The notes under the pieces: model-generated
The model's input: only the letters and a program-made list of their open reading frames with translations
The model's database searches: none
What the model was told of the DNA's origin: nothing
Program-made: the position numbers and the translations under genes
Source of the DNA: Actinomycetota bacterium
Lineage (GTDB): Bacteria > Actinomycetota > UBA4738 > CALAEC01
DNA: 43,318 nt
Reading direction: 5' to 3'
NCBI GenBank assembly: GCA_036833435.1
Contig: DAITPV010000001.1
Span: 1 to 43,318, forward strand
In this document: positions 7,828-18,648 of the stretch, piece by piece
Position numbering within the stretch: the first letter of the stretch is position 1
How the letters are laid out: each line of letters opens with the position of its first letter

Positions 7828-9711
7828 TTGCCTAGACAGAGTCTCACCAAACCCGAGACTTGGCAGATCGCGGAACTTGAAGACTCCCTTGCCGACGTTC
7901 CACAGCGAAATAGACGACTCGAACTCCCCCGGTTTCAACGTTCGATAGTCTGGGACGAACCCCAGCAGAGGGATCTCATCGCATCGTTGCAGCAAGGCTA
8001 TCCGATCGGATCGCTTCTCTTGTACGAACGGGGAAGCGAGGCCGGTAACGTCAAGCGCTATCTTCTTGTAGATGGGCTTCAGCGTACGACTGCGATCAGG
8101 AACTACCTGCGCGAACCTTTGAACTTTGCGTCCATCCATCACCTTTCCCTCGAGCGTCTCGAGCCGGCCAAGGCGACGATCCAGGAGTTGCTGGGCGTGG
8201 CGGACGCTGGCGCTCTTAACCGAGCGATCGATAACTGGATGGTTGGAACAAGAACGCTCCGAGCGGCCGACGGATACTCATCCCATGGCTTCCTTGAGAC
8301 GCTCGCCAGTGAACTCCAGATTGGACCTCCTGATTCTCCGGAACTACTCTACGAAGCGATTGATCCCCTTCTTGACGAGATCCGCGAGCAAGTCGACATT
8401 CGACGGATGTCCTTGCCGATAATCATCTACGAGGGTGATGAAAGCCACCTACCAGACATCTTCGAGCGAATCAACGCGCGCGGAACCGCACTCAGCAAGT
8501 ACGACATCTACGCGGCCAGCTGGGTCGATCAGGAAACGCGAATCGAAAACACCAAAATACGGGATGCGATCGATGAGAAGTATGAGGAACTTCTTGAAAG
8601 CGGATACTCAATACATGGCTTGGAGCAGGATGGTGAGCGCGCATACAGTTTGTTCGAGTACCTCTTTGGGTTGGGTAAGGTGATCTCCCAGGAGTATCCC
8701 CGCCTCTTCTCTGCCAAATCAGATCCAACCGAAACCGAATCCATCGGCTTCACTCTGGTAACCGTGGTGAACCAGATGCGCCTTGCGGAGATGCCTCGCT
8801 TGCCCGGCCGTCTACCGCGCGACCCTCAGGGCCGAATTGATCCTTCCCAGTTCGAGGAGCCCCTCTTTGACGCCATCAACAGGGTGGATGAATGTCTAAG
8901 GCCCTTCTTGGGAATCGCCTTGAACCGGCGAACGGGACCTCCCTCGGTGGGCCACACCGAGTATCAAATTGCATCACTCATCGCTAGGGCACTTGCAGGA
9001 CGGTTCGTGTCCCGCACCTGGGAGGAACGCCGAGATTGGGAAGAAGAATGGGCGACTATGAGCACTAGCCTGCCTCAGCACTATCTCTATGACATCTTGT
9101 TGCAAAACTGGAGGGGCTCTGGAGATACCAGGCTTTTTGACATGACTTGGAGAGAGGAACCTGTAGGCACCTTCCGTCTCTCAGCCCACTACTCGCGCCC
9201 CATCCCTAGGAAAGAATGGGACGAGGCCCTAGGTCTCTGGTTTCGTGAGCAAACCCAACGCGAGCAACGGTCCCGTCCGAAAGTTCGAGCAGCAGACAAG
9301 GTCTTCCTCAGGTACGTCTACTCCGGGATCGTTAGTTACCTGCAAGATGCGCGCGACACGTTTGAGCTTGAGCATCTCTATCCCGTTAGCAGGCTCCGAA
9401 GTCTCATCCGTACGGATGAGCCAGGCTGGCCGATCAGCTCGGTGGCAAATCTCGCACTCTTCGACTGGATCCTGAACCGTGAGAAGTCGAAGCTGACTAT
9501 CCGAGAATACCTCGAGAGAATTGATGATGACACCGAACGAGGAAGGGTCGCCGATCGAGTCCGGAGTTTTCTGCTCTGTGAGATCCACGACGTGGAGATA
9601 CCTCGAGAGAATGCCACGGATGTCCTGACGCGTGAACAATACGAAAGCTTCCTGATACGTCGCTATGATCGGATGAAATCGCAGCTCTATGAGAATCTCG
9701 GGATTGGGTAA
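7828..9711 (+). CDS. GmrSD-like type IV (modification-dependent) restriction enzyme: N-terminal DUF262 (ParB-like) plus C-terminal DUF1524 His-Me finger nuclease
   Basis: N-terminus LPRFQRSIVWDEPQQRDLIASLQQGYPIGSLLLY and LLVDGLQRTTAI match the DGQQR-type DUF262 motif. C-terminus FELEHLYPVS...SVANLALFDWILNREKSKLT matches the DUF1524 H..P / NL..N pattern. TTG start 17 nt after the kgd stop. The lower-GC region begins here. Confidence 0.8.
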   Translation: MPRQSLTKPETWQIAELEDSLADVPQRNRRLELPRFQRSIVWDEPQQRDLIASLQQGYPIGSLLLYERGSEAGNVKRYLLVDGLQRTTAIRNYLREPLNFASIHHLSLERLEPAKATIQELLGVADAGALNRAIDNWMVGTRTLRAADGYSSHGFLETLASELQIGPPDSPELLYEAIDPLLDEIREQVDIRRMSLPIIIYEGDESHLPDIFERINARGTALSKYDIYAASWVDQETRIENTKIRDAIDEKYEELLESGYSIHGLEQDGERAYSLFEYLFGLGKVISQEYPRLFSAKSDPTETESIGFTLVTVVNQMRLAEMPRLPGRLPRDPQGRIDPSQFEEPLFDAINRVDECLRPFLGIALNRRTGPPSVGHTEYQIASLIARALAGRFVSRTWEERRDWEEEWATMSTSLPQHYLYDILLQNWRGSGDTRLFDMTWREEPVGTFRLSAHYSRPIPRKEWDEALGLWFREQTQREQRSRPKVRAADKVFLRYVYSGIVSYLQDARDTFELEHLYPVSRLRSLIRTDEPGWPISSVANLALFDWILNREKSKLTIREYLERIDDDTERGRVADRVRSFLLCEIHDVEIPRENATDVLTREQYESFLIRRYDRMKSQLYENLGIG

Positions 9712-9816
9712 GCGAACCTAAGCCTTCATTGTGACCACCCCGCGAATGGCATCGGCACCGACCGCGAGGCGTGTCAGCGGGTCTTTGAACAGCCACGAGC
9801 GTCGCTCCCTGAAGCA

Positions 9817-10887
9817 TTGACAGCGCAACCTCTTCGATTCGATCAAAAGGGATGGGAGGCAGCTACCACATGGCAGGGAAGGCCTCCGACACCCTCCCAG
9901 ACATGGGCCCTCCTCCAAGATCCCCGCCTACCTCGCCTGTTCCGAGAGCAAGTCGCGCGTTCTGCCGCAAAGTCACCCACCCTATTAGGGGCGTTCGCCC
10001 AATCCAGGGCTGCATCTGGGCGTTCCCAGCAAGAAATCATCAAGGATGTGCAAAGGCTGACCGGTCGAAGCATTCGGGTGCAAACGGCGGCCCGGCTCCT
10101 AACCACCCGGACACAGCTCGGCTCATGGAAGATTCGCTTCACTAACCTTGTATCAGGCCGTTTCACGGAGCTACTGTTCGAGCGATCCTTTCGACCAAAG
10201 CTTGAGTCCCTCCGTCTCCAGCTGCATGAAGAGACCGGCCAGCGAAACTACCTTGATTATCGGATTTCCGCCGACCCTGATTTTGAGATAGGGATCAATC
10301 TAAAGAACGCTGGTGTCCAGTATCGGGAGTCAGCCAAATGGGTCGGTCTGCATCCTGAGGATACCCTTCCGATTGCTACCTACAAGATTTTTGGCTCTGA
10401 AGTGGCCAGGATCCCCCCTCTCATCTACGTCTTTCTCGTGGACTGGACATTGCTCGAGCGACTACGAGCAATCTACTGGACGAAACTACTCAACGATCAG
10501 GAGAGAGCCGTCTTTCGCTTCATCGCAAGAGCAAGAGCCATTCCTCGAAATGTGGAGGATGCGTTCATTGACGGGACCGCAGGCCGCGGACTGGCCAGGT
10601 TGACTAGGCTGTTGGGCTACGCAAGCCTTGAACCTTCCGAGTTACCGTTTCGTGCCATCTCGGCGGGCAAGTGCCGTCGTATCTTCTATGACCATCACGA
10701 CCGAAGCCCGTACGTTTATAGGCGTCGAATGAACACGGATCCGAACGTTCACATAAGTGTCTCGGAGGAGACTCTGAGTTTCGCCGTGTTTGTTGACAAG
10801 TACCTCGCTTCGGCAAAGAGTCGCCGCGACCTTCTTACGGAGCTGCGCCACACCATCCACCTACGAGTCGTTTCTCCCAGTGTTTGA
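9817..10887 (+). CDS. hypothetical protein; positional candidate for the type II restriction endonuclease partner of the adjacent m5C methyltransferase
   Basis: 356-aa ORF convergent with the dcm-like gene; the two stops are 4 nt apart, a classic R/M layout. A possible PD-(D/E)xK-like stretch (LDYRISADPDFEIGINLKN) is weak. I recognise no family. The TTG start is uncertain. Confidence 0.4.
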   Translation: MTAQPLRFDQKGWEAATTWQGRPPTPSQTWALLQDPRLPRLFREQVARSAAKSPTLLGAFAQSRAASGRSQQEIIKDVQRLTGRSIRVQTAARLLTTRTQLGSWKIRFTNLVSGRFTELLFERSFRPKLESLRLQLHEETGQRNYLDYRISADPDFEIGINLKNAGVQYRESAKWVGLHPEDTLPIATYKIFGSEVARIPPLIYVFLVDWTLLERLRAIYWTKLLNDQERAVFRFIARARAIPRNVEDAFIDGTAGRGLARLTRLLGYASLEPSELPFRAISAGKCRRIFYDHHDRSPYVYRRRMNTDPNVHISVSEETLSFAVFVDKYLASAKSRRDLLTELRHTIHLRVVSPSV

Positions 10888-10891
10888 CTCT

Positions 10892-12001
10892 TCAAATGGC
10901 GACGAGTTCCCCCTGAACTCCCGACGGACGAAAACCCTCCTCGAGCTGATGCCGCATGGCGACCCCGATGGTCCGAGCGAGCGGGGGAGGTACTGCATTG
11001 CCTACTTGAACCTGAATCGCACGACGGGTTCCAGCGAATCGAAAATCGTCGGGGAATCCGTGAAGCCGCCTGAGTTCCGGAACGCGTAACCGTCGGTTCT
11101 CCCAGTGGAAGGGTCCAACGTACGGACCGGGCTGCGCCTGGATAGTGCTCGCGGGTCTCGATGGATCCAGCTTGAGTAGAAACGTCCAATACCTAGATCG
11201 CCACTCGAATATCGGGTGGGGATGCCCTTCGTGAGCCGTGAAGTAGAGATAGTTTCTTCCGGGAGGAACCCCCGGAAGAAGGTGCCCGAACTTGCCGCCA
11301 ACGACCTCCTCTGGCTCGGGCGACGTGACCAAGTCTTCAAACACTTGCCCCGACGTCACGTGCGGAAGCAAATCCCCCAAATTCTCGGGTGGGCGCCTAC
11401 GTTCGTGTTCACCCCAATGTGTGGGGGGTGGAAACCTCAGTGGTTGATTCTCTCTGGATCCGATTAGAAAAACACGCTGTCGGTTCTGCGGAACCCCGTA
11501 ATCAGCGGCGTTTAGCACGGCGGCAGTGAGCGAGTAGCCAAGCTTGCGAATACCTTCCTTCAGGCCCGTAAAGAAGGGTGAGGATTGATTACGGTAAGCG
11601 AGGCCAAACACATTCTCCATTACGAACGCTCGTGGCCGAAGAGCGTCCAAGAAGCGAAGATAGTCCCACAAAAGACCAGCGCGGGGGTCTCGCCCCTGTC
11701 TCTTGTATTCGAGGTGAAAACCCGACTTGGAGAAGGCAACACACGGAGGGCCTCCCAGAAGAAGGTCCACCTCGCCAATGGCCACGTCTAGATCCCGCAT
11801 GACCTGTTCGGGATCCAGCCGAGTAATGTCCTGGGGGCGTAAGTGGCCCAAGTCAGGGAAATACTTCCGGTTCAGATCAAGTGTCTCGACAGCTGTTTGC
11901 TCATTTTCGACCGAGTAGACGACTGAAAAACCCGCCTGCTCGAAACCCAGGTCAAGTCCTCCCGCTCCAGCAAAGAGGCTTACTGCTGATCGCTGCGTCA
12001 T
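10892..12001 (-). CDS. dcm: DNA (cytosine-5)-methyltransferase
   Basis: Motif I SLFAGAGGLDLGF, motif IV GGPPCVAFS, motif VI FVMENV, motif VIII QNRQRVFLIG and motif X GNAVPPPLA are all present. The ATG overlaps the vsr stop as ATGA. Confidence 0.92.
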   Translation of the reverse strand: MTQRSAVSLFAGAGGLDLGFEQAGFSVVYSVENEQTAVETLDLNRKYFPDLGHLRPQDITRLDPEQVMRDLDVAIGEVDLLLGGPPCVAFSKSGFHLEYKRQGRDPRAGLLWDYLRFLDALRPRAFVMENVFGLAYRNQSSPFFTGLKEGIRKLGYSLTAAVLNAADYGVPQNRQRVFLIGSRENQPLRFPPPTHWGEHERRRPPENLGDLLPHVTSGQVFEDLVTSPEPEEVVGGKFGHLLPGVPPGRNYLYFTAHEGHPHPIFEWRSRYWTFLLKLDPSRPASTIQAQPGPYVGPFHWENRRLRVPELRRLHGFPDDFRFAGTRRAIQVQVGNAVPPPLARTIGVAMRHQLEEGFRPSGVQGELVAI

Positions 12002-12447
12002 CTTGAAGCAATCCTCTGCCGTACCGCCTGCACGATGCGATCCGCCGCCTCCACGGGATCCTCATGCTCCCACACGCGGATCGGCATCCAGTCTGCTGCC
12101 ACGAGAAGGGCATCATTCCGTGAATCCCGGGCTCGATTCACCTGAATCTTGGTTCTCCAGTATTCAGCGTTCACCCGCGGAAAGGTGAAGTGTTTGGGAC
12201 AGCCATGCCAATAGCAGCCATCAACGAAGACAGCGACGCGAGCCTTTGCGAAAACGAGGTCCGCGGTACCAACGTCCACGAACGGCCGGCGGGCCACGCG
12301 ATAGCGAAGACCGGAACGATGAACCTGGGCTCTGATCGCCAGCTCCGGCCTCGTGTCCTTCTTGCGATTCCCTCTCATAACCGCACGCACTCCCGCTGAT
12401 GAGGCCCAAGGCACATATGGCTGAGGGGCTGCGCCCGTGAATGACAT
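11998..12447 (-). CDS. vsr: very short patch repair (T:G mismatch) endonuclease
   Basis: RKKDTRPELAIRAQVHRSGLRYRV...ADLVFAKARVAVFVDGCYWHGCPKH...NAEYWRTKI is the canonical Vsr pattern. Confidence 0.92.
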   Translation of the reverse strand: MSFTGAAPQPYVPWASSAGVRAVMRGNRKKDTRPELAIRAQVHRSGLRYRVARRPFVDVGTADLVFAKARVAVFVDGCYWHGCPKHFTFPRVNAEYWRTKIQVNRARDSRNDALLVAADWMPIRVWEHEDPVEAADRIVQAVRQRIASR

Positions 12448-12531
12448 CGTCGTGATTCTAAGTGCCTGGACTAGGCAGGCGCTAGCCCGATCCGGCGTTG
12501 CTTGCGGGACTTGTTAGCTATCAGGGCCTAG

Positions 12532-12560
12532 TTGACAAACGGCGCTTAGTTGGTTAAGGT
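12532..12560 (+). promoter_or_regulatory. putative sigma-70-type promoter for the 12591-17802 operon
   Basis: TTGACA (12532-12537), 17-nt spacer, TAAGGT (12555-12560). It is followed by the SD AGAGGAGGAGG (12578-12588) and the GTG start at 12591. It lies in the divergent gap between vsr and the DGQHR gene. Confidence 0.4.
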
Positions 12561-12590
12561 CCTCCCCCAAGACTCGCAGAGGAGGAGGCC

Positions 12591-13880
12591 GTGGCGGTTC
12601 AGAATTCGATCCCTTCGGGTTACGCGGAGACGGACGATTACATCGGAGTCGCACACCAGCAGGATCGGCTGCGGCTAGTCACGGTGCAGCTCCCATGGCC
12701 AGCACTAGTAAAAATGGTGAAGCTCCCCGATCCGAGCCGCCAAACCGACTACAACCGACCCCTGCGGCCCGGGCATGCTCAAAAATTCATGCAATACATC
12801 GATGTCGTGGATCAGCCCTATACGCCGCCGATTGCCCTCTTCACAGACCCTGCAAATCTGGACGTCCAAGAGATCAAAGGGCTTCCTCAGTCGATAGGCA
12901 ACGTCCGGTTCGTGCTGGCCAAGTTCATCCGCTCAGCCCGGGATCAAGTTCACATCCTCGACGGACAGCACCGCATCTTCGGGGGGCACCTCCTAGAAGC
13001 CAAGTACCAGGAGGACCTCGCAAGCGCCCGCGAGCAATATCGACGAGCTGAGAAGTTCGAAGGTACTGAACTCGTCGCTGAAGCCCGTGACCGGGTGCAG
13101 AGGATTCAAGACAAGATCGCCCGGTTTGGAAGCATGACTGTCACTGTGCAGATCGCCCTCACGGGGGATCGTGGGGTTGCAAAACAGATCTTCGCCGATG
13201 TCGCCGATAACGCGCTAGGAATTTCTCGTTCGATCCTAAGCGAGTTTTCCACACGATCCGCCTTCAATCGGGCTGCGCAGGAACTGGCCCAGAAGGATCT
13301 CGCCGGTGTGGTCGACAACGTCAAGGATCGGATGTCGCGATCAAACCCTCACTGGCTCAGCCTCAAGGACGTGGTCAATGTCGTGCAAGGCCTTGAACTG
13401 CCGCTTGCTAAGCGCTGGTCCCACAAACTAGAGGAAAAGCTGGACGAGGGAAGAATATACAAGCAAGGCGCGGTCTTTTTCGCGGGACTTGCGGAGGCGT
13501 TCCCCGACGTCCGCCTTGTTCTCGATGGCGAACTCAGCGGTCCAGATCTGCGACTCGGGGGGGAGCAACAGAGCCTGCTGGGCTCAACAACAATGATTCG
13601 AGTTCTAGCCTCGGCCTACCGGGTCCTACGTGACGGCGACGAACACCACGGCCCCTTGCAACATGACGAGATTGTTGGCTTCTTCGCCTCCCTACCGATG
13701 CAAGCTGGATTTACGGGAGAGACGAGGGAAGACGCCCAGCCATTGCTCGACGCCCGTTGGCTTGAGACAGGAAAGTTCAGCTACCCGTACGTGGCCCCTG
13801 TGGCTAGAACGCAGGACATCGAGGAACTGACCGAGTTCATCGTGGCATGGACTAGGGAACGAAGCGAGACCGAAACCTAG
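12591..13880 (+). CDS. DGQHR-domain (DndB-like, ParB-fold) protein
   Basis: ILDGQHRIFGG is the eponymous DGQHR motif of the DndB family. 429 aa, GTG start behind a strong SD. No dndA/C/D/E genes are present in the window. Confidence 0.7.
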   Translation: MAVQNSIPSGYAETDDYIGVAHQQDRLRLVTVQLPWPALVKMVKLPDPSRQTDYNRPLRPGHAQKFMQYIDVVDQPYTPPIALFTDPANLDVQEIKGLPQSIGNVRFVLAKFIRSARDQVHILDGQHRIFGGHLLEAKYQEDLASAREQYRRAEKFEGTELVAEARDRVQRIQDKIARFGSMTVTVQIALTGDRGVAKQIFADVADNALGISRSILSEFSTRSAFNRAAQELAQKDLAGVVDNVKDRMSRSNPHWLSLKDVVNVVQGLELPLAKRWSHKLEEKLDEGRIYKQGAVFFAGLAEAFPDVRLVLDGELSGPDLRLGGEQQSLLGSTTMIRVLASAYRVLRDGDEHHGPLQHDEIVGFFASLPMQAGFTGETREDAQPLLDARWLETGKFSYPYVAPVARTQDIEELTEFIVAWTRERSETET

Positions 13881-13895
13881 GGAAGGGAGGACGAT

Positions 13896-14276
13896 GTGTC
13901 GGACAGAAAGACGGTATTCATCGCCTTTGCCAAGGAAGACGAGGGGATCCGCAATCTATTCACCGGTCAACGTGTGCACCCTAAGACGCCCTTCGAATTC
14001 ATCGACATGGCAGTCAAGGAGCCCTACAAAAGCGAGTGGAAACAGAAGGTGCGTTCGCGAATCAAGCGCAGCGATGGTGTCATCGCGCTGGTCTCCTCGA
14101 ACACGCCGTCAGCAGATGGCGAACTCTGGGAGATCAAGTGTGCGGTCGAGGAAGACCAGCCGTTGGTCGGCATCTGGATCGAAGACAAGTACCGGACGAA
14201 GCCATCGGTGATGGGAACTACTGCATGCAAGAACTGGACCTGGCAAAACGTGGCTGATTTTATCGACAGCCTGTAA
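13896..14276 (+). CDS. ThsB-like TIR-like domain protein (DUF1863 / MTH538 TIR-like family)
   Basis: 126 aa. KTVFIAFAKEDEGIRNLFTGQ...TPFEFIDMAVKEPYKSEWKQKVRSRIKRSDGVIALVSSNT...GELWEIKCAVEEDQPLVGIWI follows the family pattern (FisF..eD, fef.D.s, W.....I..sd.vi.l.s..T, W-E-I..A). The putative catalytic Glu79 codon is at 14130-14132. GTG start with SD AGGGAGGA, 15 nt after the previous gene. Confidence 0.75.
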   Translation: MSDRKTVFIAFAKEDEGIRNLFTGQRVHPKTPFEFIDMAVKEPYKSEWKQKVRSRIKRSDGVIALVSSNTPSADGELWEIKCAVEEDQPLVGIWIEDKYRTKPSVMGTTACKNWTWQNVADFIDSL

Positions 14277-14286
14277 GGGAGACGTC

Positions 14287-15237
14287 GTGAAACGCGCGCT
14301 CCTGATCGGTGTAGACGAGTACACGAACTTCCCTACCTTGACGGGTTGCGTAAGTGACGTGCTCGCTCTGGAACCCCTTCTATCCCAAGACGAGGATGGG
14401 AGTCCCAATTTCGACTGTCAAGTTAATGCCAGCGTAGATGTGACAGAGCGGGATGAGCTTATCGAGGCGTTACGAAGTCTTTTCGCACCCGGAGCCGACA
14501 TAGCCCTCCTGTACTTCGCAGGTCACGGAGCTGAGATCGACGGCGACGTGGTCATTTGTTCAACGGATGGGACGACCTCCTCGCCAGGGATACCCCTCGC
14601 CCAGGTTCTCGGCTTCGTTCAATCCTCGTCCGTAGGGGAGGTCATTCTGCTGTTGGACTGTTGCTTCTCGGGAGCTGCGGGCGGCGTCCCTCAGCTCGGT
14701 CTTAGCACCGCGGCTATTCGTGACGGTGTATCGATCTTGGCGGCTAGTAGGCCGGAACAGACGGCCGCGGAGGCACCGACGGGGCGGGGAGCGTTTTCAA
14801 CGTACTTGTGCGGGGCTCTGGGAGGCGGCGCGGCCGATGTCGTTGGCAAGGTGACTCTCGCGGGGATATACGCCTATCTCTCCGAATCGTTTGGGGCGTG
14901 GGACCAGCGACCGACTTTCAAATCGAATGTCGACCGGCTTCACGAGATCCGTCGTTGTAGACCTGCGGTGCCCCTGCAGGAGTTACGTCAGCTGCCTGAG
15001 ATCTTTCCAAGTGCAGACGAACAAGTGTCGCTGGATCCATCGTACGAGCCTACTGAGGAACCCAAGGATGACGAACATGAGGCTGTCTTCGCAATTCTTC
15101 AACGGTGCCGCGCGGCGAAGCTTGTGGAGCCGGTCGGCCATGACCACATGTACTATGCAGCCCTCTACGGCCTTTCGTGTCGTCTAACACAGCTCGGAAA
15201 ACACTATTGGCGGCTGGCCGAGCAGGGTCGACTGTGA
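14287..15237 (+). CDS. caspase-like (peptidase C14 family) cysteine protease with an uncharacterised C-terminal domain
   Basis: ALLIGVDEYTNFPTLTGCVSD, then LLYFAGHGAE (catalytic His80) and ILLLDCCFSGAAG (catalytic Cys125/126), which is the caspase/metacaspase His-Cys dyad context. GTG start with SD AAGGGAG, 10 nt after the TIR gene stop. Confidence 0.8.
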   Translation: MKRALLIGVDEYTNFPTLTGCVSDVLALEPLLSQDEDGSPNFDCQVNASVDVTERDELIEALRSLFAPGADIALLYFAGHGAEIDGDVVICSTDGTTSSPGIPLAQVLGFVQSSSVGEVILLLDCCFSGAAGGVPQLGLSTAAIRDGVSILAASRPEQTAAEAPTGRGAFSTYLCGALGGGAADVVGKVTLAGIYAYLSESFGAWDQRPTFKSNVDRLHEIRRCRPAVPLQELRQLPEIFPSADEQVSLDPSYEPTEEPKDDEHEAVFAILQRCRAAKLVEPVGHDHMYYAALYGLSCRLTQLGKHYWRLAEQGRL

Positions 15238-15707
15238 CGGTTGTGGGTGCCACAGGGCACCAGCAGATTCCCGGACCAGCAATCGAGTTCGTTCGAACGA
15301 AGATTGGTTCCGTCCTCGATCAATCCGGTCAGTTCACGGGGGTCTGCTGTCTAGCCGCCGGGGCCGACCAGCTCTTTGCGCGGGCCGTACTAGAACGCGG
15401 AGGCTTCTTGCACGCGATAATCCCTTCAGAAGGATACGAGGCTACGTTTGCGAGCAAGACCGATCGCGACACATATGTGTCTCTGCTACAGCGAGCGGAC
15501 ATTGTCGAACGCTTGCCCTTCCCTAGACCAAGTGAGGACGCTTTTCTGGCAGGAGGAAAGCGGGTAGCAGACGAGGCAAATGTCATCGTGGCGATCTGGG
15601 ACGGAAAGCCTGCCCGAGGCAAAGGAGGAACCGCCGACGTGGTCGCTTACGCGCGTGAGCGTCGCAAGAGGGTCGTTGTAATCTGGCCCCATGGACTGGA
15701 TCGATAG
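15234..15707 (+). CDS. standalone SLOG-like (Smf/DprA-LOG superfamily, MoCo-carrier/YpsA-like) putative nucleotide-ligand-binding protein
   Basis: VTVVGATGHQQIPG (glycine-rich loop after strand 1), CLAAGADQLFARAVLERGG, and ANVIVAIWDGKPARGKGGTADVVAYARERRKRVVVI (GGT motif) fit the SLOG Rossmann pattern. I prefer the GTG at 15234, which overlaps the caspase stop as GTGA, over the track start at 15177, which lies inside the caspase gene. Confidence 0.55.
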   Translation: MTVVGATGHQQIPGPAIEFVRTKIGSVLDQSGQFTGVCCLAAGADQLFARAVLERGGFLHAIIPSEGYEATFASKTDRDTYVSLLQRADIVERLPFPRPSEDAFLAGGKRVADEANVIVAIWDGKPARGKGGTADVVAYARERRKRVVVIWPHGLDR

Positions 15708-15750
15708 GATCAACCGCGGGGAGGGGACCAGCTTGAAGGGAGCGCATCAC

Positions 15751-16122
15751 ATGCCGGGAGAAGGGCGAGAGATCTTGAAGCGTCCTTTCCTCTATCAATT
15801 CGCTGAACCTGTCTCCGGAGAGATCCGGAGCGATACGAGGATTACCAAAATGCCAGAGACCACCGACGATGAGGGCGGACGACGCAAGCATATCCAGCGA
15901 CGTCACGCGACGCCCTTCCTAACAAGAACCGCTGAAGTGGCGCCGGGGCCTGTGGCCAATCGAACAATACTCACGCGCGCACGCGAAACAACCGACGATG
16001 AGCCCCGACAACTACGGTGGCTGAGGAGCACGCCTTTTGTCCAGCAAGTCCCGAGTCTCGGGGCGCGAAAGTCCAGGGGCAGGACCATTGTCACCGAGGC
16101 TCGGGAGACTACCGACGACTGA
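15751..16122 (+). CDS. putative multi-core graspetide (omega-ester RiPP) precursor with three leader-plus-core repeats
   Basis: Three units share the same pattern: RPFLYQFAEPVSGEIRSDTRITKMPETTDDE, TPFLTRTAEVAPGPVANRTILTRARETTDDE and TPFVQQVPSLGARKSRGRTIVTEARETTDD*. The PF(L/V) segment resembles the microviridin PFFARFL leader helix. The core T-x-x-T-x-x-x-E-T-T-D-D-E resembles T-x-K-x-P-S-D-x-E-E. It lies immediately upstream of an ATP-grasp maturase. ATG at 15751 has SD GAAGGGAG; an alternative ATG at 15691 overlaps the SLOG gene end. Confidence 0.6.
   Translation: MPGEGREILKRPFLYQFAEPVSGEIRSDTRITKMPETTDDEGGRRKHIQRRHATPFLTRTAEVAPGPVANRTILTRARETTDDEPRQLRWLRSTPFVQQVPSLGARKSRGRTIVTEARETTDD
15781..16119 (+). 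repeat. three tandem in-frame coding repeats (about 30-31 codons each, at 15781-15873, 15910-16002 and 16030-16119) separated by Arg/Lys-rich linkers
   Basis: Alignment of the translated units is given above. The linkers are GGRRKHIQRRHA and PRQLRWLRS. At the DNA level, ccagagaccaccgacgatgag, cgcgaaacaaccgacgatgag and cgggagactaccgacgactga are related. Confidence 0.75.
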
Positions 16123-17089
16123 GCGAGACGCGGACAAGAAGCACAAGTCCAAGCCTACGATCTTGTTGGTGGCCCACGGAGTCGACGAGCACTCGTCTCA
16201 CCTCGAGTCTCTGCTTCGGGCGCGAGGCCACGCAAGGGTCACTCGGATTTCCACCGATATACTTCCGAACGGGGACTTAACCTGGTCCCCAGGAAAGAAC
16301 CTCATTCTCGGCGACGATCATGTTCCGCTTTACGGTGCGGGCCTATGGCGTCGACCAGGCTTTCCCTCGGTTTCGGACTATGCAAGTGAATTTCGGGATT
16401 TTGCCGTCTCAGAATGCCTAGATGCTTTCGAGGGAGCGGTCTTGGCCAATTCCATCACATGGCTGACACACCCATCCGTCCTGACATACGCAGAGCTGAA
16501 ACTGATCCAGCTCCAGGTCGCACGCCGCCTAGGCATCACGATCCCAGCCACCCTAGTGACTAACTCGGCCGATAAGGCAACTAGATTTGCCCAGAAGCAT
16601 CAGCAAGTCGTCGTCAAACCCGTCAGATATGGCCTCCTCAATAACGACGCCGCTCGCCCCCTCGTGGCATGGACTAGCTCGGTATCCGAGGAGGATCTTC
16701 AGGAACTCAAAGGGCCCCCAGTCATTGTCCAGGAACGAATCGACGCCGAAGCGCATTTGCGTGTCGTAACGATTGGCCAGCGCACGTTTGCCGCAGCCCT
16801 CCGGACTGCCGAACTCGACTGGCGGTCAGAACTCTCAAACCACGAGAGTTTCGCTCCCGTCGCTGATCTCGATCTAATGAGACTTCTTGAGGACCAGGCT
16901 CAGCGAGTCGCTCGCGTCCTCCAGCTTGGCTATTCAGCTCAGGATTGGGTTCTCGCACGAAGCGGTAAGTTGTTCTTCCTCGAGGCCAACCCCAACGGCC
17001 AATGGCTCTTCCTCGACGACGCGTTCTCCGGGCAGATCTCGGAGTTCCTGGCTGCAGAGCTTGAAGCCTTGGCGACCGCGGTCACATGA
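16037..17089 (+). CDS. ATP-grasp ribosomal peptide maturase (MvdC/MvdD-like macrocyclase)
   Basis: The sequence follows the pattern of RiPP ATP-grasp ligases: WRRPGFPS, AELKLIQLQVARRLGITIPATLVTN, VVVKPV, VIVQERIDAEAHLRVVTIG, LDWRSE and GYSAQDWVLARSGKLFFLEANPNGQWLFLD. The start is uncertain. TTG 16037 has a GAGGAG SD 8 nt upstream but overlaps precursor repeat 3 by 86 nt. TTG/GTG at 16163-16169 would give MLVAHG... without overlap but without a clear SD. Confidence 0.8.
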   Translation: MSSKSRVSGRESPGAGPLSPRLGRLPTTERDADKKHKSKPTILLVAHGVDEHSSHLESLLRARGHARVTRISTDILPNGDLTWSPGKNLILGDDHVPLYGAGLWRRPGFPSVSDYASEFRDFAVSECLDAFEGAVLANSITWLTHPSVLTYAELKLIQLQVARRLGITIPATLVTNSADKATRFAQKHQQVVVKPVRYGLLNNDAARPLVAWTSSVSEEDLQELKGPPVIVQERIDAEAHLRVVTIGQRTFAAALRTAELDWRSELSNHESFAPVADLDLMRLLEDQAQRVARVLQLGYSAQDWVLARSGKLFFLEANPNGQWLFLDDAFSGQISEFLAAELEALATAVT

Positions 17090-17802
17090 ACGAGACCTGG
17101 CGGCGGCTTCGCGCATACCTGACGGGTAACTCGGAGGTTGCCGAGGACTTGGCGATCCCGGCTGTCGAGGACGTTCCTTGGGTTCAGGCGGCCGCGCAGG
17201 ACCCCGAAAGTGCTGACTACGCAGTCGAGGCAGCGAAACGCAGCGCGGATTTTGCGAATTCAGCCGTCAGTCAGGTTCAAGACAAGGCCTCTGCCCTGCT
17301 AAGCGTCACCCTGGTCCTGATTCCGTTTGCAGCCGGAGCCTTGGCTGTCGCCTCGTCTCGAGAGAACTCGTGGCTTCGTGTGATCTCGATTGGATGTTTC
17401 GCCTTCGTAGCCCTCGCCCTGGCGTGGGCGGCTTTGCGTGCGTTCTTAGCGTCCGGATCAGTACTTGGAGGAGGACTCAACATCGCGCGCCTTTCACGCT
17501 CAGGTGATGACTCCGCTGCATCGCTAAAGACCAGGGAGGCCCAGACATGGCACTGGTCTGCGCAGGTCGCGATGGAGGTCGCCACTCGCAGATCTGGAGA
17601 CCTGTTTTCTGCACGGCGGGCCCTCATCATCGCGCTTGGATTTGCCGGCCTGGGGACCTTCGCTCTCTCCGTATCCGAGGAGAGAGCTGGCCAACCTCCG
17701 ACTGTGCCGATCGAGCGCGAATCACCGTCTGGAATGAAGACGCACAGCGATTGCGCAGTCGCAGCAACAGGGGCCTCTCCACCGGTTTGCTTGGCTCCCT
17801 GA
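17086..17802 (+). CDS. 3-TM membrane protein, unknown function (candidate membrane effector or exporter/immunity component)
   Basis: The ATG overlaps the ATP-grasp stop as ATGA. A soluble helical N-terminus ends in VQDKASALL and runs into TM1 (LSVTLVLIPFAAGALAV). TM2 is ISIGCFAFVALALAWAALRAFL and TM3 is ALIIALGFAGLGTFALSV. This topology recalls SLATT/Pycsar-type TM effectors, but that is impression only. Confidence 0.55.
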   Translation: MNETWRRLRAYLTGNSEVAEDLAIPAVEDVPWVQAAAQDPESADYAVEAAKRSADFANSAVSQVQDKASALLSVTLVLIPFAAGALAVASSRENSWLRVISIGCFAFVALALAWAALRAFLASGSVLGGGLNIARLSRSGDDSAASLKTREAQTWHWSAQVAMEVATRRSGDLFSARRALIIALGFAGLGTFALSVSEERAGQPPTVPIERESPSGMKTHSDCAVAATGASPPVCLAP

Positions 17803-18180: not shown

Positions 18181-18648
18181 TTAGTCGTTTCTACCCTGCC
18201 TCTCCAGGTAGATGGGACTTCTAAGGAACCGCCTCGGATGTCGACCTGCAAACATGAGTTCGTGGCGCCGGATCAGGGTCCCTTGCTTGTTCACAAGGTT
18301 GTGTCCTTCGGCGAGAAAATGCCTAATCAATGCGCGCTCCACCAACCTAAGGACTGTATTTAGTTGCTGGCCCTGGCGAGGTCGAACGACACCGGCCAAC
18401 ACGATTCTGGCTCCGGTTTGGGCGGTTCTCAGGTTCTCCACCAGATTGACGTTGTTCAGTTGCTGGTCTACTCGCCTTCGAATCGAACCGCTCGCTTGCC
18501 CTATGTAGATTGCCTCGTAGCGGTTGCCCCAATGCCGGGCGAAGACGTAAACGCCGGGTCTCGTTGGAAGGCTAATGAGGTCGACCGCATAGCCGATACC
18601 CTCTCGTCTGAGGGGAATCGGGCGACTCCACTCAACATAGAGTTTCAT
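18181..18648 (-). CDS. small GIY-YIG-like nuclease domain protein
   Basis: PGVYVFARHWGNRYEAIYIGQASGSIRRRVDQ matches GIY-x10-YIG followed by the conserved Arg. Downstream LVERALIRHF...HNLVNKQG supplies the Glu and Asn positions. It is the last low-GC gene of the island. Confidence 0.55.
   Translation of the reverse strand: MKLYVEWSRPIPLRREGIGYAVDLISLPTRPGVYVFARHWGNRYEAIYIGQASGSIRRRVDQQLNNVNLVENLRTAQTGARIVLAGVVRPRQGQQLNTVLRLVERALIRHFLAEGHNLVNKQGTLIRRHELMFAGRHPRRFLRSPIYLERQGRND

Follow-up and report, generated by a model that had tools for sequence, protein, structure and literature searches.

A stand-alone SLOG-fold gene accompanies the caspase-like protease in a three-gene form of type IV Thoeris

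Three overlapping or closely spaced genes at one locus

Type IV Thoeris is an abundant two-gene operon that encodes a short TIR protein and a caspase-like protein, ThsE (Rousset et al., Science 2025; preprint 10.1101/2024.10.24.620036). The window analyzed here, 43,318 nucleotides (nt) of contig DAITPV010000001.1 from assembly GCA_036833435.1 (Actinomycetota bacterium), contains at positions 13896-15707 a trio in which such a pair is followed by a gene for a stand-alone SLOG-fold protein. The trio is a three-gene form of type IV Thoeris and no new kind of system: the TIR-caspase pair was already known, and the SLOG gene is new. The locus had been singled out from its sequence as a Thoeris-like arrangement with sensor and effector on separate polypeptides (hereafter the original prediction). 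Its features are as follows.

13880-13890, forward: Shine-Dalgarno-like GGGAAGGGAGG, 5 nt before the TIR start, read directly
13896-14276, forward: thsB-like gene with a GTG start, short TIR protein of 126 amino acids (aa), assigned from Pfam, PADLOC and identity to PsTIR
14287-15237, forward: C14 protease gene with a GTG start, 316 aa, starting 10 nt past the TIR stop codon
14287-14925, forward: caspase-like (C14) domain, residues 1-213, with H80 at 14524-14526 and C126 at 14662-14664
14926-15237, forward: C-terminal domain of the protease, residues 214-316, α/β, and stop codon, delimited from alignment and AlphaFold2 (AF2) modelling
15234-15237, forward: GTGA junction, SLOG start codon over the protease stop (TGA at 15235-15237)
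15234-15707, forward: gene for the stand-alone SLOG-fold protein, 157 aa, assigned from AF2, Foldseek and homologue lengths
15246-15263: SLOG motif GxTGHQ, residues 5-10
15351-15371: SLOG motif LAAGADQ, residues 40-46
15618-15638: SLOG motif GKGGTAD, residues 129-135

The first base of GGGAAGGGAGG is also the final stop-codon base of the preceding DndB-like gene. At the other end of the trio, the overlap of the GTG of the 157-aa open reading frame (ORF) with the protease stop, noted in the original prediction, was confirmed in the sequence. It suggests that translation of SLOG is coupled to that of the protease. As hundreds of homologues measure 156-158 aa, in agreement with 157 aa, the sequence comparison supports the GTG at 15234 as the true SLOG start.

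Fold and family of the third protein

The 157-aa protein had no match in Pfam, NCBIfam or PADLOC at E ≤ 0.1, and a sequence search of the PDB returned nothing significant. A profile search of the PDB gave weak, motif-level matches to ShosA and DprA only (E about 0.5). An AF2 model was built from 66 homologues. It consists of alternating β and α elements, with a mean predicted local distance difference test (pLDDT) score of 96.4 and a predicted template modelling (TM) score of 0.91. The pLDDT exceeds 90 almost throughout, and the modelled protein is one compact domain, free of linkers, pro-segments and autoinhibitory extensions. The Foldseek matches of the model, with a probability of 1.00, are YpsA (2nx2, E 2.6e-9, TM 0.77), DprA, ShosA, TM1055, the Moco carrier protein, LOG and the SLOG domain of ThsA (7uxs, E 3.7e-4, TM 0.50). 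By its predicted fold the 157-aa protein belongs to the SLOG superfamily, and the structure search thus bears out the SLOG-like character that had been proposed for it.

Besides the three motifs listed above, the protein carries a PSE motif (residues 99-101) and a WDG motif (residues 122-124). Residues G8, H9, A41, G43, A44, D45, Y68, P99, W122, G131, G132 and D135 are invariant; they sit in the loops that line the nucleotide pocket of the SLOG fold. Residue R128, in the PARGKGG loop, is mostly Arg, with Gln, Lys or Val in some homologues.

A collection of 5.8 billion protein clusters contains 808 homologues of the protein, nearly all of 156-160 aa and unnamed, and the family extends to 10,492 representative clusters at E ≤ 1e-3. 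Wherever a source names the gene, it is called 'hypothetical protein'. Among the homologues there is one precomputed match to DprA (P0067) and one weak match to YpsA (P0349). As judged from these sequence searches, the protein represents an uncurated SLOG family that lies outside the curated YpsA, DprA, Lysine_decarbox-LOG and DUF2493 families of Pfam. Stand-alone SLOG proteins of the same size also occur in phages according to BFVD, their predicted structures being very similar to the model (TM 0.83, root-mean-square deviation 2.0-2.5 Å, 22-23% identity), an example being the 'DprA-like' protein of Streptomyces phage Mildred21.

Linkage of the SLOG gene to one clade of caspases

The caspase alignment was scanned against one genome per GTDB species. 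From the 363 relatives found, the best 80 were kept, and their loci were searched with profile hidden Markov models (HMMs) of the caspase, of the TIR (iterated) and of SLOG; a neighbor-joining tree of the caspases was also computed. The caspases align along nearly all 316 residues in the 80 loci, except for a contig-end fragment (L029) and a disrupted gene (L019). A SLOG gene lies directly 3′ of the caspase gene in 20 of these 80 genome loci, loci from metagenomes being additional. Measured against the 363 relatives of that scan, the three-gene form accounts for no less than about 5% of the family. All 20 SLOG-positive loci fall within one caspase clade, and SLOG was found in none of the 52 loci of the canonical clade. 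The hosts belong to Actinomycetota, Acidobacteriota, Planctomycetota, Nitrospira, Verrucomicrobiota and Thermoanaerobaculia, and include a Bathyarchaeia bin. Seventeen of the 20 SLOG genes are intact and three are split by frameshifts (L019, L022 and L028).

The junction between the caspase and SLOG genes reads ATGA, GTGA or TTGA in most loci examined, and the NTGA overlap was also seen in L082, L083, L103, L104 and the P0230 locus. In all three close caspase homologues inspected, a gene of 157-158 aa overlaps the caspase stop by 4 nt, two of these genes being confirmed as SLOG by HMM. When SLOG homologues served as the starting point, the TIR-caspase-SLOG cassette was found in Ornithinimicrobium murale and in several metagenome contigs, in many cases beside integrases. 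More than 25 loci, independent of one another and spread over several phyla, have the order caspase then SLOG; of about 29 such independent loci that carry SLOG, about 26 have it immediately behind the caspase. Because the same order recurs in so many independent loci, mostly with the NTGA overlap, the arrangement is not due to chance. The reverse order, SLOG then caspase, was met on a short contig (L087).

A single-base insertion or deletion at the NTGA junction would fuse the two proteins. The top 120 hits that a concatenated query obtained from the 5.8 billion protein clusters are 315-334 aa long, and none of them is a caspase-SLOG fusion. Two derivatives that consist of a TIR and a caspase with no SLOG gene are nested inside the SLOG clade (L010 and L030). 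Pairwise distances in 14 loci, a comparison of low power, gave r = 0.10 for caspase against SLOG and r = 0.10 for caspase against TIR, neither being significant.

A third gene of SLOG type is mentioned neither in the article on type IV Thoeris, nor in the 2025 survey of TIR systems, nor in the other literature searched. The survey gives type IV as caspase only, and the operon cloned for type IV Thoeris has no SLOG gene (10.1101/2024.10.24.620036).

Homology of the TIR and the protease to type IV Thoeris

The TIR protein matches the Pfam family ThsB_TIR (PF08937, E 2.8e-8, exceeding the curated cut-off) as well as the ThsB models of PADLOC. Its Trp-Glu pair, TGG GAG in the DNA, comprises W78 (14127-14129) and the catalytic Glu E79 (14130-14132). 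Among the TIRs of ThsB type from the fetched loci, E79 is kept in 47 of 47 and W78 in 45. The TIR of a validated type IV Thoeris, PsTIR, whose gene was taken from Table S2 of 10.1101/2024.10.24.620036, is 49% identical to that of the window (E 1e-45), and in the alignment E79 falls on the residue changed in the published E79Q construct. The TIR assignment, the Thoeris framing and the conserved Glu of the original prediction are all upheld by these comparisons. Identity to PsTIR is 65-67% for the TIRs of other SLOG-linked loci, the TIR of the window being more diverged, and 85-86% for the TIRs of the canonical loci L025 and L027. Across both clades, the TIRs are far better conserved than the caspases (L025, L027, L010, L011, L083, L006 and the window were compared).

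The protease matches Peptidase_C14 (PF00656) across residues 2-213 (E 1.1e-16). The NCBIfam model of EACC1-type caspases also matches it (E 5.8e-29), under the model cut-off. H80, in AGHG, and both C125 and C126, in DCCFSG, are invariant among 61 homologues, in line with the His and Cys that had been picked out as the dyad. H80 is conserved in both clades. As C126 alone of the Cys pair is common to the canonical clade, C126 is likely the nucleophile. The AF2 model of the protease has a pLDDT of 77, with values of about 80-90 across residues 230-316. Foldseek relates it to MALT1, caspases and metacaspases through the caspase domain only, and gave no match for the C-terminal domain. This domain had been described as an unassigned extension of about 125 aa; it stays unassigned, and its size is about 100 aa (residues 214-316).

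Although the C-terminal domain has no structural relative in this search, it is shared within the family. The caspase of the window aligns along residues 1-316 with caspases of the canonical clade, including those of Pseudomonas loci and of L025 and L027, with 37-42% identity. The core LDPSYEP...F..LQ...L..P...H...AA...C.LT.LG..Y is common to the SLOG-linked and the canonical clades, and comparison of the domain between the two clades gave 24 shared conserved columns and one switched column. In type IV Thoeris, the TIR product N7-cyclic ADP-ribose (N7-cADPR) activates the caspase in lysates of cells that co-express the caspase and tagged EF-Tu, and the authors proposed, as a hypothesis, that the C-terminal domain of the caspase is the sensor (10.1101/2024.10.24.620036). 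The activated caspase cleaves promiscuously after arginine, PsCaspase being Arg-specific (10.1101/2024.10.24.620036). On the evidence of the alignments, the caspase of the window retains a C-terminal domain homologous to this proposed N7-cADPR sensor.

With its TIR and Glu, C14 dyad and C-terminal domain, the TIR-caspase core is type IV Thoeris on every sequence feature tested. The locus departs from the two-gene architecture of that type by its third, overlap-coupled SLOG gene. It is filed as a variant of type IV because the SLOG gene is added here and throughout one caspase clade.

Other genomic contexts of the SLOG gene

Seven SLOG-positive loci lack a TIR over a distance of about 6 kb (in L012, downstream, up to the contig end). 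In the SLOG clade, the caspase is therefore tied more closely to SLOG than to the TIR. In Pseudofrankia (L014, 549-7935), the caspase-SLOG pair is found between a CATRA-N/C+EAD1 gene and a CATASP gene, with a WD40 gene upstream and no TIR within 6 kb. In Frankia (L013, 4252-7439), the pair comes directly after a CATRA-N/C+EAD1 gene, and in L015 (3895-7427) a CATASP/CHAT protein is encoded upstream of it. These loci suggest that caspase and SLOG form a portable effector unit that type IV Thoeris shares with CATRA conflict systems, two defense architectures with no other relation.

SLOG genes also occur apart from the caspase. L084 and L085 hold orphan copies with neither caspase nor TIR nearby. 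The order in L100 (3171-7494) is TIR, TIR, SLOG, a soluble 389-aa protein, TIR_2 and a canonical-type caspase. In this locus, SLOG comes right after two TIR genes and does not adjoin the caspase; the canonical-type TIR-caspase pair is 2 kb away. No Pfam or PADLOC match was obtained for the 389-aa protein. In P0337, a SLOG domain 43% identical to that of the window is fused to a membrane domain (Pfam 8xMP); a metagenome scan with P0337 did not recover this fusion and returned relatives of the SLOG domain only. Other fusions in the SLOG family involve a STAND-like NTPase with two SLOG copies and RyR domains, and more distant SLOG relatives adjoin TIR-WD40 and other TIR proteins. Such fusions and TIR neighbors are what a reader module for TIR-made nucleotides would be expected to show.

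Many three-gene loci have one or two extra TIR genes right after SLOG, on either strand; the window has none. The positions of these genes, in the coordinates of each locus, are given below. The extra gene of L101 encodes a TIR-WD40 protein.

L082, 6498-7339: extra TIR gene or genes after SLOG
L004, 7328-8441: extra TIR gene or genes after SLOG
L103, 4466-5029: extra TIR gene or genes after SLOG
L104, 4437-5550: extra TIR gene or genes after SLOG
L101, 4534-6780: extra TIR gene after SLOG

Setting of the trio in the window

The trio lies inside an island of low GC content that spans about 7.5-19 kb of the window (GC 0.55-0.61, against about 0.68 in the flanks) and is preceded by a 2-oxoglutarate dehydrogenase gene of actinobacterial type. 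The cargo of the island consists of a GmrSD-like gene, a Dcm methylase with Vsr, a DndB/DGQHR-like gene, the trio and an ATP-grasp peptide-maturase cluster. Through its low GC content and the GmrSD-like, Dcm/Vsr and DndB-like neighbors, the trio has the setting of a defense island, which speaks for a type IV Thoeris core. The genes around the trio are the following.

7828-9711: GmrSD_N/DUF262 protein
9817-10887: ORF of 356 aa
10892-12001, reverse: Dcm methylase, overlapping Vsr
11998-12447, reverse: Vsr
12591-13880: DndB/DGQHR-like protein, ending 16 nt before the TIR start
15691-16122: graspetide-candidate ORF, with three ETTDDE motifs spaced by 129 and 120 nt
16037-17089: ATP-grasp maturase (TIGR04187, SAV_5884 family, E 2e-47)
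17086-17802: protein of 238 aa, no Pfam match, weak PADLOC match to PycTM (E 8e-5)
18181-18648, reverse: ORF of 155 aa at the island end, weakly GIY-YIG/UvrC-N-like (Pfam E 0.058; NCBIfam Cho/UvrC E about 1e-3)

None of the window neighbors of the trio has a BLAST homologue beside the trio in any of 104 other loci. On this ground, the island genes at 7828-13880 are treated as cargo separate from the trio. The DndB/DGQHR-like gene was considered as a fourth component of the system and rejected, no homologue being detectable by BLAST in the 104 loci; an unrelated gene of the DndB superfamily is located nearby in L104. No SIR2 was found among the annotated neighbors of the trio in the window, and a scan for promoters and terminators produced nothing exceeding the shuffled expectation. 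The cluster immediately 3′ of the SLOG gene (15691-17802) is likely that of a graspetide, a peptide matured by an ATP-grasp enzyme. Its maturase gene and the gene of the 238-aa protein are joined by an ATGA overlap.

Discussion

The resemblance of the locus to type IV Thoeris comprises a ThsB TIR with the same Glu, an adjacent C14 protease with the same C-terminal domain, and an operon in a defense island; extra TIR genes are present in many loci related to that of the window. The published system has two genes, whereas the clade of the window adds SLOG and its caspases are about 40% identical to the canonical ones. With ThsA of type I Thoeris (SIR2-SLOG), the trio shares a SLOG-fold module in TIR signalling. 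The SLOG domain of ThsA is however fused to the SIR2 effector and is a proven receptor of 3'cADPR, while that of the window is a separate protein with no other domain, closer to YpsA and DprA than to ThsA (TM 0.77 against 0.50), and it accompanies a protease effector that has a putative sensor domain itself. SLOG also occurs with TIR genes in type III Thoeris and in the putative 'SLOG and 4TM' and 'SLOG Patatin' effectors (Yirmiya et al., 10.64898/2025.12.03.692087), where, unlike here, it is part of the effector polypeptide (10.64898/2025.12.03.692087). YpsA, DprA, ShosA, LOG and the Moco carrier protein share the fold and the Gly-rich pocket motifs with the SLOG protein of the window; they differ from it by their context, none being caspase-linked, and it has no significant membership in their sequence families.

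The core pathway may be regarded as settled by analogy with the validated Pseudomonas system, to which it is homologous. Upon phage infection, the short TIR, through E79, would turn NAD+ into an isomer of cADPR, most likely N7-cADPR because the TIRs of the clade are 49-67% identical to PsTIR. This signal would activate the caspase-like protease, with its His80/Cys126 dyad and retained C-terminal domain, which would then cleave cellular proteins promiscuously and abort the infection. The analysis shows which genes are present and which folds they encode, that the core is homologous to type IV Thoeris, and that SLOG is linked to the caspase within one clade and through an overlapping junction. 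The identity of the signal, the binding of a ligand by SLOG and the direction of its effect are what we infer.

Regarding the third protein, we favor with about even confidence a type IV Thoeris core to which SLOG is added as an accessory nucleotide-binding regulatory partner of the caspase. SLOG would be a clade-specific regulator, coupled to the protease by translation. Its conserved His/Asp/Glu/GGT pocket would take up the same nucleotide that the TIR makes, and SLOG would thereby tune the activation of the protease: it could set the activation threshold, either as a stoichiometric buffer or as a safety catch released by the ligand, or it could turn the signal over. The genomic data support a functional link of SLOG to the caspase and to TIR signalling. 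We do not think that SLOG is the only sensor of the system, as canonical caspases respond to N7-cADPR without SLOG, L010 and L030 lack it, and the genes stay unfused. Some direct action of SLOG on the caspase has in its favor the overlap coupling, the pairs without TIR and the divergence of the caspases.

In a more specific version, which we consider less likely than not, the host itself encodes SLOG to buffer or switch off the signal. Produced at a constant ratio to the caspase, SLOG would sequester the cADPR isomer or hydrolyze it in the manner of LOG. If true, such a buffer would set an ultrasensitive activation threshold and shield the cell from a promiscuous protease, analogously to the ring nucleases of type III CRISPR. 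The presence of SLOG in CATRA loci without TIR would then imply a nucleotide signal there too. It would be, to our knowledge, the first dedicated signal-control component in a TIR-signalling defense system.

Several findings weigh against SLOG as an accessory regulator that responds to the TIR product. The seven loci without TIR are awkward for a SLOG that solely buffers or destroys this product, and fit a direct action on the caspase better. Orphan SLOG genes exist in L084 and L085. Between the SLOG clade and the canonical clade, the caspases share only about 40% identity, against about 65% for the TIRs, a divergence that could mean adaptation to dependence on SLOG. The three split SLOG genes (L019, L022 and L028) may be long-read assembly errors and not pseudogenes, and are weak evidence that SLOG is dispensable. 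Finally, homology to PsCaspase itself was established by way of near-orthologous loci and not directly, nine residues of PsCaspase being available.

The original prediction had gone further and proposed a split sensor and effector, possibly in a non-covalent complex. In the strict form of this reading, SLOG is the receptor of the TIR-made nucleotide and the caspase of the SLOG clade needs ligand-bound SLOG. The part of this proposal that concerns genomic linkage stands, as the association of SLOG with the protease is tight and non-random. Overlapping NTGA junctions and strict adjacency across phyla agree with it, as do the retention of the caspase-SLOG pair in CATRA loci without TIR, like one portable effector unit, the SLOG relatives that adjoin TIRs or are fused to effector-like membrane domains, and the strong divergence of SLOG-clade caspases from the canonical ones, which the TIRs do not share. 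That sensing has moved onto the separate polypeptide is not the most economical explanation, since the caspase keeps its C-terminal domain, L010 and L030 lack SLOG and no fusion was found. N7-cADPR directly activates homologous caspases that carry this C-terminal domain, the SLOG clade has left the conserved core of the domain unaltered, TIR-caspase derivatives free of SLOG occur naturally within this clade, a fusion was missing from the top 120 hits, and caspase and SLOG distances are uncorrelated (14 loci, r = 0.10, low power). A split sensor in this strict sense is therefore judged unlikely; a regulatory or co-sensing SLOG subunit is possible.

SLOG could also be a latent second effector or a dedicated substrate of the protease, for instance a LOG-like nucleotide N-glycosidase that is switched by cleavage. 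Like the known protease-effector modules (10.1101/2025.11.14.688446, PMC12642450) and CATRA, the locus combines a caspase-like protease with a small partner encoded just downstream of it. Prokaryotic caspases were shown to act by such a cleavage logic on their MBL, hydrolase, Pepco and EACC1 partners (PMC12642450), and a gene immediately 3′ of the caspase is the typical layout of a protease-effector pair (PMC12642450). The caspase scores with the NCBIfam model of EACC1-associated caspases, the pair occurs within CATRA loci, CATASP is listed as a protease-associated effector, and LOG enzymes are structurally related to the SLOG protein. The partners in these modules (MBL, hydrolase, Pepco, EACC1 and CATASP) are, however, latent toxins with cleavable segments, whereas SLOG has no obvious pro-segment: its model is compact and fully ordered, with nothing removable. 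The mostly-Arg R128 of the PARGKGG loop would suit an Arg-specific protease such as PsCaspase, but it is not conserved. Moreover, the type IV caspase is itself a promiscuous killing effector, and the word SLOG is absent from the text of PMC12642450. We consider this possibility distinctly improbable. That SLOG is an independent neighbor with a role of its own, such as nucleotide metabolism or DNA processing like DprA, YpsA or ShosA, is very improbable: the orphan copies (L084 and L085), the very large family (10,492 representative clusters) and a weak motif-level likeness to the DprA-like antitoxin ShosA would accord with it, but SLOG comes straight after the caspase, with stop and start codons that overlap, in about 26 of about 29 independent loci from many phyla, is confined to one caspase clade, and has other relatives linked to TIRs.

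Pairing of TIR signalling with caspase-like proteolysis is otherwise known from animal immunity, and the SLOG fold reads cADPR isomers in type I Thoeris. The SLOG clade provides an experimental handle on a free SLOG protein that may set a threshold, take part in sensing or end the signal. Defense-system finders and annotations with a two-gene definition of type IV Thoeris would overlook this conserved component. As a widespread, conserved and apparently undescribed partner, SLOG offers a route to the gating of the TIR-caspase axis and ties this axis to CATRA.

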